DNA of 57,731 nt, filler included, from Circinaria calcarea (Eukaryota), in the NCBI GenBank assembly GCA_051942165.1. It is 6 parts of 6 records of this genome, joined end to end, with 100 filler letters (N's around TTAATTAATTAA, not from the genome) between each part and the next. Parts side by side here need not be neighbours in the genome. Positions count along the whole stretch, not along the records: positions 48,202 to 57,731 come from JAVECS010000920.1; 5 more parts are not named here. One strand, given 5' to 3'. The notes under the pieces are model-generated. The model ran no database searches and had not been told where the DNA came from. It saw nothing but the letters and a program-made list of their open reading frames with translations. Positions 9,548-57,731 of the stretch are shown piece after piece (within the stretch, counting starts at the first letter, position 1; the number at the start of each line of letters is the position of its first letter). Both the position numbers and the translations under genes were made by a program.

Positions 9548-9647
9548 NNNNNNNNNNNNNNNNNNNNNNNNNNNNNNNNNNNNNNNNNNNNTTAATTAAT
9601 TAANNNNNNNNNNNNNNNNNNNNNNNNNNNNNNNNNNNNNNNNNNNN
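9548..9647. other. Artificial contig linker (N-run/TTAATTAATTAA/N-run)
   Basis: 100 bp, stop codons in all six frames, identical at all five junctions. Confidence 0.98.
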
Positions 9648-19189: not shown

Positions 19190-19289
19190 NNNNNNNNNNN
19201 NNNNNNNNNNNNNNNNNNNNNNNNNNNNNNNNNTTAATTAATTAANNNNNNNNNNNNNNNNNNNNNNNNNNNNNNNNNNNNNNNNNNNN
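19190..19289. other. Artificial contig linker
   Basis: Same 100-bp N/TTAATTAATTAA/N block. Confidence 0.98.
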
Positions 19290-28830: not shown

Positions 28831-28930
28831 NNNNNNNNNNNNNNNNNNNNNNNNNNNNNNNNNNNNNNNNNNNNTTAATTAATTAANNNNNNNNNNNNNN
28901 NNNNNNNNNNNNNNNNNNNNNNNNNNNNNN
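28831..28930. other. Artificial contig linker
   Basis: Same 100-bp block. Confidence 0.98.
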
Positions 28931-38466: not shown

Positions 38467-38566
38467 NNNNNNNNNNNNNNNNNNNNNNNNNNNNNNNNNN
38501 NNNNNNNNNNTTAATTAATTAANNNNNNNNNNNNNNNNNNNNNNNNNNNNNNNNNNNNNNNNNNNN
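38467..38566. other. Artificial contig linker
   Basis: Same 100-bp block. Confidence 0.98.
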
Positions 38567-48101: not shown

Positions 48102-48201
48102 NNNNNNNNNNNNNNNNNNNNNNNNNNNNNNNNNNNNNNNNNNNNTTAATTAATTAANNNNNNNNNNNNNNNNNNNNNNNNNNNNNNNNNNNNNNNNNNN
48201 N
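48102..48201. other. Artificial contig linker
   Basis: Same 100-bp block. Confidence 0.98.
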
Positions 48202-48260
48202 CCCCCCCCCCTTTTTTATCTCCTTCCGCTTCGCTCCTGTATCTGCTAACATGTTAGCAG

Positions 48261-50741
48261 GCCTGGTGCGCGACGCAGAACTTCGGCCGTCCTGCGTCCG
48301 GCTCGGCATATCTTTCCGGTGACTTGGTCGACGAGGGGAAGCTCTTGTTCTTTATTAAAGAGCATGTTGTTGAACGAGCCCCCCGCTCTGGCGCGCGTCT
48401 CGCGGCGGAAAAGAAGAGGAGGAAACAAAAGAAGGAAGAGGAGCGCCTGGTGGCGAAGAAAAGACGGGTTTCCGCCCTTCCTGGAAGAGCAGTGGCCGTG
48501 GGGGAGGAGTGGGTGGAAGAGGAAGAGGAGGACGCTGGCTTGAGCGCAGAGACTCCCTCCGAATTGTATTTGCAATATAATACAATTCGGGGTTATGTCT
48601 CTGCGATTCTGGGGCTGTATAATCGCCAGGTTTCGGCCAGGGTGAATTGCGCTCCTTGCCCGACTGGAGTTGCCTTAAAGGCACTCAAGTCCAGCGTCTC
48701 GCGCAGCGAGTTCCGTCGTCGCAGGTCCGAGTACGTGGACCGCGGCGTCGGCAACATGAAAGACGGGTATACTGCTGCGCAGGTGCCCGATGTCGCTGCC
48801 GCTGCCTACGGCTGGAAAAAAGAGAAGTCGATCGAGGCCGCGTTGCGTACCTGGGTCGACTTTTTACTAGGGCATTCGATGCTAATGCGATTAGGTAACC
48901 GGCTTATGCTAGAGTTACCCGATCTATTTATGATGTCCTTACCTCGCGAAGGTCCGCCCAGCAGTAGCTACGAAGCTTAGTACCTCGTTGCTCAAATGGA
49001 TCACGGTAGTACCCCCTTTTCTTTCGTTTGGACTGGTGTTCTAGCTAACTATATACAGGTAAAACTAACCAGCACGGCCGCATCGAGTACGGTGCGGCCT
49101 TGCGACATCGCAACCTCCTGGCTTGCCCCGTCGGGGCTTTATCGCTCTTCTTGTTCTGGAGGTGGCATTGCTCCGGGGAGCCCTTCCCTTGCTTTCGTAC
49201 CAGTCGTGACTGGTACGATATAAAGCTTCTAAAAAGGGACAATGCCCACCTCACAACCCGCCTTTCGGACCCTACGGCAGGGACCTGGATCCACCGCATC
49301 TATAATGCGAGTGGTGTCGTCGCCTCCCGAACAGGGCACGCCCCTCGGCGAACTGCGCCGAAGCATGGGGAGGATGTCGGAGTGACGGAGGACCAAGTAA
49401 GTCTTCCTTCTTGTATTTGTGTTGGCTAGATACATACTAACTACGTCTATAGATACGTCGTGCGGGACGTTGGAATGCAGACCAGATGACTGGCTGCTAT
49501 CTAACGTCTTTTGCCACGGCAATGGATGCGCGGGGATAGCGGATTTCGATCCTGACTATCCTGGCTCCTACTTTTTGCCTCGGGCGACCGTCGTTCCTCC
49601 GCCCTCCCTCCAGCAATGTGTCTGGCCCGCCCTGAACGGGTGGAGAGCTGCGCACATGCAGCTTTCAGGAGCAAGAGAGGTGGTGGAGCCGAACCTGGCG
49701 GCTGGTGCGTTTCTGGAGCTTCTTTCGAAGCTTAGAGAGGTGTTTTTACAGGTAAGTATGCCTTCTTTTCCGTTGGTTTTAATGATTGATTCAGCTAACT
49801 ACTTTATATAGGATTCTGTCTTCTTTCTGGAGGCTTTTCCCGGCCACCCCCTCTTCCGCCACCCCCTTTTCGCCTCCTCGGAGTATCTTGCCTTCGCCCA
49901 GGCAGTGAAGCGAGCTGTCGAGCTCGTGAAAAAGGAGGACCCACACTCGATCATGGTAGAGAAGGCGATGCCTGCCGTTGCCGAGCGTCTGCGGACCTTC
50001 TCTGGCATCATGCAGACAGGACTCACCTGCCTGAACGCGAGGCTTGAGTCCATGGAAGAGAAGGTAAGTTGCTGCTGCTTTCTTCTGCTAATCTACTTGT
50101 ACTAACTAAGTGCTAGTTCCAGGCTGTGCAAGCCTCCGTGGAGGACAGCCTCGGAGGTCAACTGACCCTGACCTTCTCTCCTGGTCGGACGAGGCTGCTT
50201 CCGCAAGGGTACGACAGAACCCCTTGCGCAGCAGCGAGAGAGGTCTTCCTCCCCTGCCCCTGGTACGGTACGGATCCCACTCCGCCCTACCTTCCAACCG
50301 GTCCTCTCTCCCTCGTCCTCCGTTCCTGGTCCTGGTCCTGCCTCTGCTGTGCCCATGGCTCCGCCCCTGACGCTGGCCGGACCTGCTCCCCTCGCTCCTT
50401 TGCCGATTGTCGCTCTCGCCGCTGCGAGCCAGGCACCCTCGTACAAACTGTCGAGGGAGGTCCGCGACATCCTCTCGCTGTGGAAAGAGTGGACGGTGGG
50501 CTTTGCAGGGCTCCCGTCCGTGGACGAGCTGGACAGGAGGTGGGGCTCGGCCTGGAGGGCTCCCTCGGAGCGGCAGTACTATAGTACTCGCCGCACCATT
50601 ATTGACGAGATTCGGAGGCGGGCAGGGGACTCGGAAGACTACGCTGGGGTGGTGAGAGGGATGGAGCCTGAGCGGAAGGCCTCTAAGGCGTCGCTGGATA
50701 AGGTCTTTAAGGCCTTGCGAAAGGACAGAAAGGGGGCATGA
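48261..50741 (+). mobile_element. Crypton (CryptonF-type) tyrosine recombinase gene, Ndc10-II-like YR + C-terminal GCR1_C domain; disrupted, 5' end missing
   Basis: Catalytic set LMR, GKTNQHGR, HAPR, AGRW, GCY; LACPVGALSLFLFWRW, WYDIKLL; GCR1_C-type LWKEWTVG...DELDRRWGSAWR...YYSTRRTIIDEI. In-frame TAG at 48978-48980 and +1 frameshift in T-run 49509-49512. Confidence 0.9.
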
Positions 50742-52280
50742 TTCTGTATATAATTATTAATTTAGATTTAGATCTAGATTAACTATAGACAAATAAAAGA
50801 CAGTATCTCCGCCTATTTACACGTAAATTTGCCCGTAGAACCGCGAGAAAAAGTCCTTGTTAAATAACCCCTAAGGTGTTCCGCCTCTAAAAGCTCGACG
50901 AAAACTTTACGAATTTACTGCGCACGCAATTCTGGACCGATTTGGCTCAAATTAACATATTCTATTGATTAATAGTATTATTTATTATCTAAATTATGAG
51001 ACTCTAATGCCTTGATGCGCGTGCTGGAATCAAGTGCACGAAGGTTTATTGTAATATTACGGGCGGATGACACTTTAGGGCGGTCATCCGCGGATCATCC
51101 ACGCTATTTGACCTACGATATCCTTCTGATATTATCTGGGGCTTCTATGTGCAAGGCATTATCCGGAGGGGAAGCTACTTAGTATGAGCGGAGGGGTCTC
51201 CCAGATTATTTATCAGGAGCGAGGGCAAAGGTCAGTAATACACTTAATATTAGCTCTTGAAACTGATCTCTCGGTTATATATAAGGTACATTCTTCACGT
51301 TCTATAACCAACCACAGTGATGCCTCCTAAACAAGAAATGCCCCTTCGAACGCATCTTTCAGGATTCTAATCACACACGCTCTCTTTGCGTTTCAATAGA
51401 TCATAAATTCACGTTCCTACAAAACACACGCCACGGTCGATCCACGGCGGGATCCCCGAGTCAAAATCCTACCAACGAGAAGATTATGGGATCCACATTA
51501 GAAACCTCTCTGGTGAATTGCAAGTTGTTGGAATCGTCGATACAGCTATCTAAAAAGCGCTGCTGCTATTGCCGATGGTAGAAATCACGGTATTGCGGCT
51601 CAAGCAGAGCACCGGCGTATTCAGTTTGAGTTGACTCTGTAGCATACATAACAGAGGAAAAATGGCCAAATACATCTTTAGTATGAGTACGACTGGTTGG
51701 AGAGGGAATTGGGTGTTGTCAGTAGATGTTTTTGTCTTTGAGTATGGTTTATTTCTCAAACTGCTGTACATCCTCTAGTTACAGATGGTTGGTTGGAGCA
51801 GGGTGGACAAGAAGATTAATATGTGCCCACCTTGGTCCTTCTCTTCCGAAGATTGCCGCCAATGACTAGCAGATAGATCCCCATAACATAAGGCGATTTC
51901 CCAATTGCTCCTCCACTTCCTAAAGTCTGATAACATTGGTGCAACTCGAAGTAGATAATCCGAATCCACCAAAGGATTTACACACATATGATCGATTCAG
52001 CCTCTCTTTATCCCCAGACTCCAAGCATAACAACCAGCTTCAGCCTAATCAAGATCCGGAAAATACAACAGCTGAAACACCAGCGGATTACATCATGGTA
52101 ACCTACAAAGCATGCTTGTCAGGGTCCGTGCGATCGCTGCAGTGCCGCACATATTCCGTAAGCTCAACCAAAGAAGCGATGTTTATCGAAGCCTCCTCGA
52201 CTCGGCGAGTTGACCACGAACGATGGTTGTGGTATCGATTGGAGGAGAGGATAGTTCAGGCCGATCGGCTGATATGGCCA

Positions 52281-55200
52281 TCATATTACTGGGTCAACCT
52301 CAAAACACCCGAGCAGAAGGTCGGAGTCTAGCTGTTCACCGATGATCACATTGTGATTCATGCTTTCCAGCTTCAGCTTTGGACCAGCACCTCCAGTGAA
52401 AATCTGCTTGTGCAGCCCTGCCTGACGACAGAGAGAGCTAAATCTGGGGCGTAGCTGCTTCAGCGCGTCTATGAAGACTTTTAGTTTATCACCTTCCAGT
52501 TCAAAATACCTAAAGCAATGTCATTACGTTATGATGATAAAACCCAAATAAATAAACTTAGCATACTGTTCGGTTTTTACCATCGTATCATCATCGAAAG
52601 CACTCTTTATGTTTCTCATGGGTAGAAGAGTCCATCCATTCTCATCCCCAATCTCTGATAGCCGCTCATTGAAGTCGAAAAGCTTTTTGCCCCTATCTTT
52701 TATTTTCCTTATTTTCTCTCGTCGGGAAACGTATTTTGCAGCGTTGCTTTCGTACTCTTGTAGTGTTATCTGCAGACAATCAATAACGAGACTATCCAAT
52801 GCACAGGTAGCGATTTTTTGATTTTTTCCCGCAATCTTCTTAGGAGCACTCCGAGGTTTTTCTTCATTTTTCCGCTTGTTGATGCGATGATATTCATATC
52901 GCCATAAAAAATGATCGTAAAGCGCCATTTCTAATAGACGCCGTTGAACATCAAGACAAGCCATTTTGACGTCGTTTACCACGTATAGCTGATATATGCT
53001 GCGGGCTTGGTTTGTACCAAATTCCTGAAACTGATTTGGATATCGACACAAGACGGAAAGGTCAATTAGAACTTGATGACCGCCAATAACGGAAGCAAGA
53101 GTAAGGATTTTATAAATATCAGCAGCTTGCAGAGTGGTGGACTGAACCTGGCAGTCGTAAAAGCGGACCCACTGTGGATTGAATACTTCCAAGTTCCGGC
53201 GGTGACCGTGCTGCTTCGATCCCGTGGTTTGATGTGGGTTAACAGGCAGTGTCCATCTTGTTATTGACTGGTTATCGTCGCTCTCCCATGACCGCTTTCT
53301 CAAAGTAGATTCGGAGATATCGTCAAGGTAAGATGAAATCCAAATTTGTTCGTGGAACGGCTGAAGCAGCTTTGCGATATATCTCGCTCGGAGTTTTGAG
53401 ATGTCAGTTATGGTAAGAACATCAGGATCCAGAAGCGACTCAGCCCTAAGAATAGTAAATAGCCCACAATTCCACGTATCAGCGTCTGCATTATATAGCT
53501 GTTATTAGAAGTATTAGTGATGTTGAAATTCAAACAACAATTTAATAATGACGTACCTCTTTAGTTTCGCGTCTTATGTTAGGGTAAACCTCTGAAAAGC
53601 AGTCATACACGAATTGTGTTCTCTCGTCGAATTTATCGGTTGTATTGTACACAGTAAAGGTGAAGTCTACGGTATCAACCACAATAAGGCACCAGTGATT
53701 TTCGTAGTGACAAGGTAAAAGGATTAAGTTGACTTCATCGGAACATATGAGCCGTGTAGAGTCTCTCTGATCATGGGCAGCTTGAGTTACTAAAGAGTCA
53801 ATAACCACCCACGCACGTTCAGACTGCCGAAAAAGCAATCGAATCGTATCAATTACAATAGTGTCACTGAGCCAAGAGTCACTAAGAGGAGACTTTTCTG
53901 GCAGAAACCTTTGAAGGTCGAGACGAACTTGCTCAGAATTAGAAAACGATGATATGAATGGTATTTTAGCCTTCGTATCAAGCTTTGAAAAGTTTTTTGT
54001 AGCAAAGTCAATCCACCATTGAATTATGTCAACGAATGGCACGCTGTTTAATGGAGGACTTAGAGATAATAGCGGCGGCTTGTCTGCTGTAGGCGAACGC
54101 ACGAGCATAGCAGTACCACTACCTGTGGAAGTCTCCGGCGCCTTCTCGGCACCCACTGGTCCCGATCCTGGTTGCTGCAAAATAGCGGCCGGAGAAGAAG
54201 GTTCGGATATAACTGGTAAGCTAGTTTGGCTGGCATTTGACGGTTTATCTGTGGGATCTGTCCCTGAGAGCATTACCGATGTGGGATCTGTATCTGAGAG
54301 CGCTACCGATGTTGGATCTATCTCTGAGAGCATTACCGATGTGGGATCTATCTCTGAAAGCATTACCGATATAGGATTTGTATCTGAGAGCACTACCGAT
54401 TCGTCGCTCGATACTGAAGCAGTATCAAAATTTGCATTACTCTTTGACGTAAGGTTCTTTCGTGGAGTAATGACCATTTTTTTGATACCGGCCTTGGACT
54501 CGTTCACTACCGTCTTCGCAATGGCTGAACTTGGTAATGAAGCTTTTTGGGTGTGCGAATTAGCGAGTCGAGCCGAGCAACGAACGGGATGTATTTCCGG
54601 AACCTTGATCAAGCCCTTTTTCGACGTCCTAGTCATCTTCGGGGAATCCTCCCATGATATATCGATATCGAGTAGCCTCGGGGTCTCTATCTTCATGTCG
54701 ATTACACACATAGGCTTTACATTGGGGCATAATCCAATGCTCTGACGACACTCGAGATAAAAGGGATCCACAACCCAATCATCTTGCGAGTAGTTGATTG
54801 CCTCTGCCATGTTGGCTTCGAGATTTATGCCCCAGTGGTAGGCATCTGACTGAAGTAATACCAAGTCTCCTGGCTTTTGAAGGATAATTTTGAACTTAAC
54901 CTTCCAACTGCGGAGTAGAGACGGTGAGGGAACCAATCCATAATGGCGGAGAAACTGACTGCACTCCGGTTTTTTAATTCGAAGTTTCTCAATCAATCGG
55001 CTCTCTAACTGAGATTTTGATCTGGGGTCGACAACAATCCAAAGTTTGGCTCCAAAGTACAGCAGATTGGCTGACTTTAAGTAAAAGTCCTCGACGTGAA
55101 GTGGAAACACTGAGCTGGATGAGGTTGAAATGTATACGAAACTTGAATGAATACCAGGAAAATGCTTGGCTGTACTTAGTAAATGTACGCCCGGCTGAAG

Positions 55201-55930
55201 TCCCGGTTCAGGAAGGCCGAGGTTGCTCCGAACTTCAGATCTATGCGCCGTCACGTTTAGGTATTCATGTACTGCATTGCTGCTTGCGAGTTCTGCTAGG
55301 CGTAACTCAAAAAGGTCCTCATGATCCGTCTTCCTATAGTCAATGTTTGTGTCTGAGAATGGGGGTATTATAAACGATTCTTCCGATTCAGCCAACTCCT
55401 TTCTCACGCCTTCCTGCACAACCAATATGTCATACTGTTCAGTAGAATATGTCTGTTGCAGCACGCTTCCTCGAGTCAGTGGCATCCTTAGTGCATCTTT
55501 AGCGGTAGCCCCGGTTCTGATGTGGAAGAATCCGAAGGGCGTTGGTGATAGCCCACTTTCGAGTTGGAAGAGATCAGTGAAACTCGCATGAGGGATATTG
55601 TAAACCTCATTGTGATGGTTTGCCTGCTCTGAAGTTGGTGGTGTGGGTAATGGCGATGTTCCTTGGAAAAACGACTCGTCACTGATAATACCGGATGACT
55701 CAAGCTGAGCTACACATGGCGTATTCTTTCGAACGCTGGAACCCTCAGAGGAGATAGCCCCAACATCGAGCTCGCGGAGCAGCTCATGTCGTATTAATTT
55801 GAATTCATTGGGGGAGGAGGTTTTCTTTATATGCGACAAAAGGGCTTTAATCTGGCGAGATAGTTAGTACAAGAAAGCTAGGTATAAAACCATCGATTCC
55901 TACTTCTTGCAGTTTAGTATCTTGAGCCAT
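52281..55930 (-). CDS. JmjC (KDM4-like) demethylase + Ulp1-like (C48) cysteine protease fusion with unknown C-terminal helical domain, ~1150 aa
   Basis: Four exons joined in frame by canonical introns (~55853-55903, 53499-~53555, ~52510-52566). JmjC: FPLHVED, SAN, GAKLW, CSQFLRH, QKPGDLV, YHWGIN, AEAINY. Protease: WLSDTIV, IDSL, LLPC..NHWCLIVVD, YNT, WNCGLF. No internal stops found. Confidence 0.85.
54251..54400 (-). repeat. Coding tandem repeat, 5 x 30 bp
   Basis: Encodes SVVLSDTNPI SVMLSEIDPT SVMLSEIDPT SVALSDTDPT SVMLSGTDPT. Confidence 0.95.
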
Positions 55931-56025
55931 CTCACCGGAGGTTCAGTATATCATTGATTGAAGATTAATTGAAAAGTAGATTTTACACCGAAGTATTCGA
56001 CGTGAAATAATTCTCTAACTAATAA

Positions 56026-56081
56026 GGGTTTAGCGTGCAGAGCTCAAGGTAAAACCACCGTGAGCTCTGCACGCTAAACCC
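56026..56081. repeat. Perfect 21-bp inverted repeat with 14-nt loop
   Basis: GGGTTTAGCGTGCAGAGCTCA-AGGTAAAACCACCG-TGAGCTCTGCACGCTAAACCC. Confidence 0.97.
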
Positions 56082-56201
56082 GTTCCTTATTGGCGCCACC
56101 AACCATAAAGCGAAAACAAAGGACATATGCTCTTTACTTTCTGTCTATTCTTTTTCCTCTTTTACTTTCCTACAAGCTGCTACTCCTTCTTGGTCTTGAG
56201 G

Positions 56202-57731
56202 TTACGGTAGCTTTTCCTTTTTTACCGCCTGATCCTGAGCAGCTTTCGAATGCGCCCCTAAGGGTGTTGAATTTGAGAGGGAAGACGTGCTATGAGCATG
56301 ACGCCGAGTCTGTTCTTCAAGGATATGCCGCTGCCGTTCTATTTCTTGTTCTTTTCCCTCTAATTTGCTTTGATCCTCAACAAGCTTTCGGCGGGTGTTC
56401 TCCTGTTCTCGCCTTCGGCTCTCCAACGCCAGTTTCTCTGACTCAAGCTGTCGAAGATGTTCTTGGGCTTCATTATTCTGTGCAGATAAATGTTGTTGTA
56501 GCTGCTCCGGGATATCTTGCATCGGTGTGTCTCTCGAAGGCTCGTCCCCAGTGGGTTGTCTCGATGGCGGTGACGAAACCATATTAATATTTGATGTAGC
56601 TGTCGACCTGCAACTGATTATTGCCTGGACAGCATCGTCTTGCTCTGGCACGCCGAAAAAGCTCAAGTACCAACATCTCAGGCGGAACATAGAGGTGATC
56701 TGCTTGCCTTGCTCCTCTCTTCTATCATGAAGATGGCGAAGGAACAAATACTTACGGTCTTCTTCATAAGTGGAAGTAAGCGGTATACCACACCTTTTAT
56801 TCGACGTTATCTCGTAATCATCCGTTACGAGAAGTGGCTGCTGAGGTTCTATTAACCCGATTTCGCTCTCATCCTTGGAATACTGCCTCAAGGCTTCTAT
56901 TTCAGGGGACTCAAATCCCAATTGATAAGTAAGATCGGCCATGTTGCGAAGAGCTTTGGTATTTATTGCGGCCGGTAGCTTCGCTAGAACTATTCTCCCA
57001 CTTGGCTTTTTGGGGATTTCACGGTGGTGTCGTAGAGCATACGCGCAAAGTGTTCGGTAGCCTAGGTTTTTGATGTCACTTGAGCCAGCTGGCATAGGAG
57101 TTAATCTTGACTCTGTTTCCTGTATCAAGATCAAGCCTTTTGTCTGGTTTACCCCTGTGTATATTCCCTCGATGGCCGTCCGCAGGGTATCACGGGAACC
57201 TATGGATACCAGCCACTTAAGGCAGTCCGAGATGGCATAGAGGAGAGCAACGTCTTTATGAAAAGTAATTAGGGAGGGCATTAGTCGCCTAAAATCTAAT
57301 AGTTTAATTAGAATTCTTTCGCGCTCTTGGCCGGTGAAGTTTTAGAAAATTTCCCCGCTAAGAACCTTATTACGTATAGTTTTTGCGTCGGCTATAGATG
57401 CCCAGGGAGCTTTAAGCTCTAACGCCTTAACTGTTATAGAATCAACCTTCGCCATCGCAGCCTTATCATTATGGAGAATGACACTCCAGGTTTTTTCGAT
57501 ATGTTCGACGAGGTAATGAGAAATCTCCTAGGATTAAATCAGTATAGGTGAAAAATCTGCAAAACGGAAAATTAACTTACCTCATCGCATCTAGAAGCGG
57601 AGTCTTTATGGGAAGTACTAATTTTCATTCCCGCTATGATTCCGGGTATCTCTCGTAGCGAATCATATGCAGCAGCGCGGTCTTTATGTTTCGTAATATT
57701 CTTTAGATTACGGGCCCTGTGAGGAGATAAA
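56202..57731 (-). pseudogene. DUF3723-family gene (Starship-associated), 5' end outside the window, in-frame stop
   Basis: IPGI..GMKI..HK....CDEEISHYL, KVDSITVKALELKAPWAS, MPSLITFHKD, YALRHH, LGFESPEI, KRCGIP...YEEDRKYLFL, ITSMFRLRCWYLSFFG, then coiled coil. In-frame TAA at 57342-57344; intron ~57528-57580. Confidence 0.82.

Follow-up and report, generated by a model that had tools for sequence, protein, structure and literature searches.

A dead CryptonF copy beside an intact JmjC–Ulp1 gene in probable Starship-type DNA of Circinaria calcarea

CryptonF elements are defined by a tyrosine recombinase (YR) combined with a GCR1_C domain and by 6-bp terminal direct repeats (PMC3212892, Kojima and Jurka 2011; this and the other published sources below are drawn on in part). 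Among Starships, DUF3723 is one of four auxiliary families, together with FRE, PLP and NLR (PMC11162782), and transposons occur in 75% of 522 of these elements (PMC13004909). A Crypton inside Starship-type DNA is itself a known arrangement, as Crypton-type genes have already been tabulated there: Table S7 of PMC11162782 (13,693 rows, searched by term and considered for matching rows only) includes three genes with GCR1_C and NDC10_II inside Starships. Here we analyse a locus of Circinaria calcarea, contig JAVECS010000920.1 (C920), which lies whole at positions 48202–57731 of a 57,731-nucleotide stretch (the window) made of six contigs of about 9.5 kb joined with N-linkers, from a fungal assembly of 31.5 Mb in 5,512 contigs. 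We propose, with a probability of roughly 75%, that this locus consists of two layers, a CryptonF inserted into the interior or remnant of a Starship or Starship-like element that carries a JmjC–Ulp1 gene. An earlier note on this DNA had raised the possibility of a new class of element, driven by a Crypton-type YR; that class being absent, the locus taken overall is unremarkable, with a dead Crypton lying in Starship-type DNA. What is new is the JmjC–Ulp1 fusion, from an apparently undescribed accessory demethylase family.

Pfam searches of 11 open reading frames (ORFs) of C920 matched NDC10_II in four successive plus-strand ORFs (best E 2.4e-16) together with GCR1_C (1e-17) at 48258–50741, JmjC (7.7e-18) with a weak Peptidase_C48 match (0.008) on the minus strand at 53545–55863, and DUF3723 (3.5e-41), also on the minus strand, at 56205–57341; no housekeeping family was matched among these ORFs. 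The earlier note had recognized a YR of the Ndc10-II/GCR1_C Crypton type, a chromatin-enzyme gene and a DUF3723 gene on one contig without a housekeeping gene, and these matches agree with it, as does the published list of auxiliary families with its description of DUF3723 as a Starship accessory gene. Its remark that the YR gene is GC-richer than its neighbours also holds, the YR exons reaching 59.4% against 45.0% for the JmjC–Ulp1 coding sequence and 46.4% for DUF3723 (seven host ORFs on other contigs, 45–54%). Named relatives of the C920 genes come from filamentous ascomycetes (Candelina, Vezdaea, Xylographa, Glutinoglossum, Cladophialophora, Verruconis, Neofusicoccum, Lasiodiplodia and Hirsutella).

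A self-contained CryptonF ending at position 51131

The features of the Crypton are as follows (RIP, repeat-induced point mutation).
48202–51131, plus strand: right-hand 2.93 kb of the CryptonF element (termini aligned across copies)
48261–50741, plus strand: YR gene exons 2–6 (NDC10_II and GCR1_C), a pseudogene (Pfam; relative P0174)
48981–48983, plus strand: premature TAG stop codon of RIP type within the YR gene (TGG in C1956 and run X1; TAG also in C205)
49508–49536, plus strand: two 1-bp insertions in homopolymer runs just past the Tyr motif, near 49509 and 49532 (absent from C150 and C205)
51065–51131, plus strand: right terminus, with three TCATCC/GGATGA motifs followed by the 6-bp core CTGATA at 51126–51131 (end point common to C205, C3755 and C3520)

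The element to which the YR belongs is a conventional CryptonF, self-contained and about 3.45 kb long, with its right end at 51131. The right-end pattern occurs four times in the genome, each time finishing at a CTGRTR hexamer; on contigs C205, C3755 and C3520 the last base is the one at which the window copy ends. The left-end pattern gave nine matches on seven contigs, of which the six that were aligned (C3733 was omitted because it had no further similarity) all start with (C/T)TGGTR. The 6-bp direct-repeat core is thereby present at 6/6 left ends and 4/4 right ends, those of the window copy itself lying on different contigs, unpaired. The left 0.50–0.53 kb of the window copy is on an adjoining contig, C369 or C3211, for a total of 3,463 or 3,429 bp; each of these contigs overlaps the start of C920 by 141 identical bases, and a comparison of their left flanks with the right flank and its C492 homolog, made to choose between them, returned no match for either.

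The copies are dispersed through unrelated DNA: across 21 pairs of flanks (6 right, taken at 1 kb, and 15 left), local scores of 17–30 compare with shuffled maxima of 20–31. Among the longer sequences related to YR exon 2, six of the best 12 are on contigs of 3.16–3.46 kb, the size of the element, and the summed depth of run X1 contigs is 37–62 in bins spanning 48520–51063 but 10 and 0 in the next two bins. Further pieces of the family lie on C205, C150, C1956, C3211, C369, C1835 and C1525. As the right terminus falls 1.15 kb before the end of the JmjC gene, ahead of all of the proposed cargo, no cargo is contained in the element, and both the JmjC and the DUF3723 genes are outside it.

Compared with an 812-aa relative, P0174, the YR shows 43–76% identity in four blocks covering residues 78–807, and the R, K, HxxR, W and Y motifs seen in intact relatives, which we take to be catalytic, can still be read. 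The window copy is nonetheless dead, with one stop and three 1-bp insertions (the third near 50220) that leave no intact frame; all three insertions are missing from X1 contigs. In the C205 copy, 268/336 substitutions relative to the window copy are C-to-T or G-to-A, as expected of RIP, a process inferred here solely from the direction of changes between copies, since the RIP indices of the window copy are near neutral (composite RIP index, CRI, 0.05).

Three TCATCC/GGATGA motifs lie within the final 67 bp of the Crypton (51065–51100 region) and two to four near each left end (C369, C3211, C64 and C1835), against 0.87 per kb in the window; from its placement, the motif may be a candidate GCR1_C binding site. 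We presume a likeness to the yeast Gcr1 site CWTCC, a consensus not confirmed in PMC8421071. Insertion would have proceeded by YR-mediated recombination between a circular CryptonF and a CTGRTR target, leaving one core copy at each end (the ends are those shown here, the circle step is taken from PMC3212892), with the YR and GCR1_C domains probably bound to the subterminal repeats. The element would then have died through C-to-T mutation and small insertions, carrying no cargo.

Other Crypton sequences of the genome include short, internally deleted derivatives on C1835 (L021:2971-3662) and C1525 (L022:2398-2769), and a separate element of about 220 bp that recurs beside or near these derivatives and on C205, C3755 and C713. 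On C713 (L101:1855-3319), a second CryptonF-type gene has NDC10_II (E 4e-52) and GCR1_C matches and no DNA similarity to the window element. On C150 (L014:4896-7824, L015:8400-10000), ferric reductase and DUF3723 genes accompany a fragment of the window's Crypton, which makes this its second occurrence in Starship-type DNA.

The JmjC–Ulp1 gene and its accessory family

To the right of the Crypton lies an intact gene with the following features.
52281–55930, minus strand: JmjC–Ulp1–helical gene, 1,163 aa; exons 55930–55904, 55851–53557, 53498–52558 and 52509–52281 (no internal stop, GT-AG introns)
54793–55122, minus strand: KDM4/Rph1-like JmjC domain with iron ligands His261, Glu263 and His348 (closest solved relatives yeast Rph1, E 1.2e-13, and KDM4D)
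53450–53900, minus strand, bounds approximate: Ulp1/C48-like protease split by intron 2, with His728, Asn745 and Cys785 (Pfam E 0.008, below cut-off; local profile)
52558–53250, minus strand, bounds approximate: all-helical C-terminal domain of about 200 aa (local profiles; predicted model, pLDDT 79.5)
54250–54400, no strand: 30-bp tandem repeat of about five units in the JmjC–Ulp1 linker

The four-exon model is one that we infer from sequence; its product aligns with the 1,305-aa protein P0012 in two blocks, of 50% (residues 93–440) and 39% (584–1159) identity. The canonical Ulp1 triad is His-Asp-Cys, with an oxyanion Gln. In the window protein His728 and Cys785 are present and Asn745 occupies the Asp position, at which relatives have D, N or E. 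Comparing metagenome loci L108 and L109 gives a dN/dS of 0.15 across JmjC and 0.32 across the C-terminal exon, with 0.56 in the linker and 0.55 in the first part of the Ulp1-like domain; the demethylase domain is constrained and the protease domain much less so.

The helical domain is common to accessory JmjC proteins with and without Ulp1, including those on C363 (L089:3532-4290) and C745 (L052:7930-8646), and is a candidate targeting domain. An hhalign probability of 99.9 between two helical-domain alignments is inflated because the grown alignments shared members; independent support for a shared domain comes from the profile of each seed group, which recovered members of the other. In fold comparisons, Foldseek gave 0 matches at E up to 0.001, VIA-align a best Z of 4.4 (rmsd 4.7, 87 aligned) and Atlas a best score of 0.85, and a word-based search of longer proteins gave no match; the lack of a library match is no proof of a new fold.

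A profile search with the window family returned, at E up to 1e-30, 134 cluster representatives (clusters at 50% identity), a few of them ordinary Rph1 or KDM5 proteins. The family is patchy, with 28 of 30 looked-up clusters holding one or two members and the other two holding three. Pfam matched both JmjC and Peptidase_C48 in 13 of 68 scanned relatives, and JmjN or PHD in none of the 68, while a local profile of the Ulp1 region matched 54 of about 160 collected proteins. By a crude motif test, both iron-ligand motifs are present in 112/139 proteins; a regular expression for the Ulp1 cysteine matched 4/12 long proteins, an uninformative count given that six of the misses are single-exon predictions ending before the Cys exon. 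In P0083 (Verruconis gallopava) the domain order is Ulp1, JmjC, SET, and P0103 and P0108 add a Zn-cluster domain; from these predicted architectures, the family is one that shuffles chromatin domains.

In a quick tree of 159 JmjC domains (without C966, C2371 and nine library proteins, which had short or no domain matches, and P0013, excluded beforehand), host Rph1 and KDM5 form a separate group (SH-aLRT 93), the window domain is one of 86 that group together (SH-aLRT 96), and those of C363 and C745 are in another group. These placements indicate that the window JmjC is outside the host Rph1/KDM5 group and within a diverse accessory family; as the deepest split of the tree is unsupported, a single origin of the accessory JmjC groups is not established.

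JmjC genes are also recorded in bounded Starships. The matching rows of Table S7 of PMC11162782 comprise 38 for JmjC, in 33 Starships, and 16 for Peptidase_C48, and the two parts of Table S9 place 31 of the 33 carriers: 15 in Arwing (of 63 listed), 8 in Galactica, 4 in Prometheus, 2 in Enterprise and 2 in Voyager. The carriers are mostly from Fusarium and are thus not independent. No accession among the named members of the 30 JmjC-family clusters matched a Table S7 row, and the window family and the tabulated genes may be one family. Our literature searches, which covered neither preprint supplements nor most subscription papers, brought up no paper that discusses Starship JmjC cargo or a JmjC–Ulp1 fusion. 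Neither JmjC nor Ulp1 is mentioned in the main text of 10.1101/2021.12.13.472469, nor Jumonji, Ulp1 or histone in that of the Tangerine preprint.

The surrounding DNA and what it may be

The remaining features of C920 are these.
56202–57731, minus strand: DUF3723 gene, its 5′ part cut by the contig end, with an in-frame TAA at 57342–57344 (Pfam; C745 paralog)
51305–51772, minus strand: decayed gene fragment (74% identity to part of a C492 gene that lies 1.0–1.5 kb downstream of a truncated DUF3435 gene)
56026–56081, no strand: hairpin separating DUF3723 from the JmjC–Ulp1 start, its 25-bp arms 96% complementary

We consider it likely that the DNA into which the Crypton landed, with its broken DUF3723, intact JmjC–Ulp1 gene and decayed gene fragment, is an accessory region of a Starship or Starship-like element. 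Starship captains are DUF3435 tyrosine recombinases, encoded by the first gene of the element. The host genome has 15 JmjC matches, of which 10 are classed as accessory from their best BLAST match or their place in the tree, and four of those 10 loci (on C920, C745, C363 and C185) share a contig with DUF3435 or DUF3723, compared with none of the five other JmjC loci. Without C920 the count is 3/9; about 1% of contigs of at least 9 kb carry a marker (if contig numbers rank by size), and 3/8 at that rate has P = 5e-5, a value that shows co-residence only, since accessory genes cluster anyway. On C185:12685-19307 (L096-L097), DUF3723 adjoins a patatin-TPR gene, a textbook Starship auxiliary pair, and a JmjC fragment lies at C185:7079-7309.

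Several observations weigh against the two-layer reading or against parts of it. C920, with the DNA joined to it, yielded no DUF3435 gene, empty site or Starship boundary, and the DUF3435 remnant on the candidate neighbour C369 points away from C920. Six of the 10 accessory-type JmjC loci and 5 of 6 metagenome loci are without a Starship marker, several of these contigs being short. On C745 the JmjC that follows the DUF3723 paralog is a different gene (32% identity), so the pairing is not fixed. As to the protein, JmjN was not detected by Pfam in it or in its 68 relatives (the N-terminal region was not folded, and a diverged JmjN is possible), the Ulp1-like domain has Asn where Asp is expected, and this part is weakly constrained, at dN/dS 0.55–0.72, about as the linker. 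H3K9 is not assured as the substrate, given that Aspergillus nidulans KdmA, a fungal KDM4, is reported to be an H3K36me3 demethylase (PMC4949671). The nesting of a Crypton in Starship-type DNA, which the earlier note had favoured, is supported, with the Crypton boundary shown directly and the Starship layer indirect.

The flank might instead be a generic transposon-rich accessory region of shuffled Starship debris, rather than the interior of one element, in which JmjC–Ulp1 was kept for host benefit. We regard this as unlikely. It would account for a DUF3723 gene that is broken while JmjC–Ulp1 is intact, and for the variable neighbours seen in X1 contigs, which diverge at 56102, 56115 and 56288; no Starship marker accompanies the downstream flank that loci L109, L111 and L112 have in common, and the 21 DUF3435 matches of the genome, on 13 other contigs (a profile search found none on C920, whose 9.5 kb end inside DUF3723), are mostly fragments, many with stops. 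It fits less well with the close pairing of JmjC and captain at two independent loci, one being C363, where a DUF3435 gene is less than 0.9 kb from the JmjC ORF, and the other L108, the one of six close JmjC–Ulp1 relatives among 29 returned metagenome loci in which a full gene lies 2.8 kb from a DUF3435 gene (Pfam on 79/110 ORFs found no Starship marker in the other five, four of them shorter than 8 kb). The co-residence of JmjC with DUF3723 and the patatin-TPR gene on C185, and the presence of JmjC genes within bounded Starships of five families, also argue against debris.

That JmjC–Ulp1 is a host core demethylase, with mobile DNA merely alongside, is highly improbable: the gene is intact and under purifying selection, with 9/13 exon differences from X1 synonymous among the best-supported differences listed, but host Rph1 (C952), KDM5 (C856) and two other JmjC genes are found off C920, the window domain stands apart from Rph1 and KDM5 in the quick tree, and the family is patchily distributed across its 134 cluster representatives.

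Least credible of all is the cargo element mooted by the earlier note, in which the Crypton-type YR would act as captain and move JmjC–Ulp1 and DUF3723. Although the YR is oriented towards the other two genes as a captain would be, a C48 peptidase accompanies the YR in the oomycete CryptonF-2_PS (PMC3212892), and the right ends on C3755 and C3520, which have no linked YR gene, could in principle be distant ends, we reject it on the termini (the right end at 51131 and a 14-point GC difference across the boundary), on the unrelated flanks of same-family copies, which the earlier note had named as a refutation of this idea (in all pairs among the right flanks of C205, C3755, C3520 and the window copy, scores are at about shuffled level), on the neighbours of the C205 copy (FAD-oxidoreductase, SDR and MBOAT genes) and on the six metagenome JmjC–Ulp1 loci, in which Pfam found no Crypton YR among the ORFs scanned.

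Within the two-layer reading, the JmjC–Ulp1 protein would most likely be an Fe(II)/2-oxoglutarate demethylase acting on methyl marks at H3K9 and/or H3K36, fused to a degenerate SUMO/ubiquitin-like protease and a helical binding domain. By homology, demethylase activity is probable. Its likeliest role would be to keep the chromatin of the element open, although an anti-silencing function is a tentative suggestion. It is an open question by what means giant fungal elements evade heterochromatin (10.64898/2026.01.28.702382), and an element-borne histone demethylase is a concrete candidate; if the suggestion is true, JmjC–Ulp1 may help such elements to escape silencing. A broader and equally speculative extension is that Starships carry their own anti-silencing module, a fast-evolving family of KDM4-derived JmjC and helical domains, often with an Ulp1-like domain and in some cases SET or Zn-cluster domains, as a fifth auxiliary class that removes repressive marks. 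Arwing elements in Pyricularia carry less H3K9me3 (10.64898/2026.01.28.702382), which such a module, if real, would explain, Arwing being the family with most JmjC carriers (15/33). Two of the six Pyricularia Arwing elements in Table S9 have a JmjC row, which limits this link, and the main text of that preprint does not mention Jmj or demethylases.

As to the other features of C920, the decayed fragment at 51305–51772 matches no Pfam family; we considered it as the tail of a DUF3435 captain and rejected this, as its match is to the gene that follows the captain fragment of C492, and C920 has no DUF3435 profile match. The TAA of the window DUF3723 is CAA in the C745 paralog, which is 94–97% identical and is followed by a retrotransposon and then the different JmjC gene. 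This paralog and an X1 contig leave the window DUF3723 at exactly 56288 (L052:1892), giving two alternative 3′ ends, and a 440-bp MITE-like insertion with long terminal inverted repeats interrupts the paralog (C745, L052:424-862). No copy of the hairpin at 56026–56081 was found among the compared loci; X1 contigs diverge near it, at 56102 and 56115. The last 282 bases of C920 were found on C920 and C745 only, and a search for the next contig to the right returned none. Elsewhere in the window, artificial linkers (44 N, 12 bases, 44 N) stand at 9548–9647, 19190–19289, 28831–28930, 38467–38566 and 48102–48201, and because the joined contigs are unrelated, adjacency across them is meaningless. 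Positions 1–48101 hold ordinary-looking fungal genes, which from their translations we take to include those for a ribosomal protein, a checkpoint kinase, a DEAD-box helicase and an actin-related protein.

Comparison with known systems

As in described CryptonF elements, the window element has one intron-containing gene with a YR (NDC10_II) and GCR1_C, a 6-bp direct-repeat core at both ends and no long terminal inverted repeats, and its family comprises dispersed copies and short internally deleted derivatives. It differs from known CryptonF elements as a new family with the core CTGRTR and subterminal TCATCC/GGATGA motifs, represented in the window by a pseudogene; unlike in CryptonF-2_PS, the C48-like domain near it is outside the element.

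The Ulp1-like domain shares with Ulp1/SENP (C48) proteases the WLxD motif, the His-Trp strand and the Cys-Gly motif at the expected spacing, but differs in scoring under the Pfam cut-off, in having Asn for Asp and no Gln before Cys, and in its weak constraint. The JmjC domain resembles KDM4, Rph1 and KdmA in its HxE...H iron ligands and in the adjoining S-x-N and K motif, which align with Rph1 and KDM4D; it departs from them in having no JmjN, PHD or zinc-finger match, in its additional Ulp1-like and helical domains, and in a branch apart from host Rph1. None of the 38 JmjC and 16 Peptidase_C48 rows of Table S7 has both domains, unlike the window gene. Finally, although no captain, boundary or empty site of the kind seen in Starships was found for C920, the parts of the Starship literature drawn on here (PMC11162782; 10.1101/2021.12.13.472469; PMC10104507) describe elements that resemble this locus in having DUF3723, a nested transposon, JmjC cargo and Crypton-type passengers.

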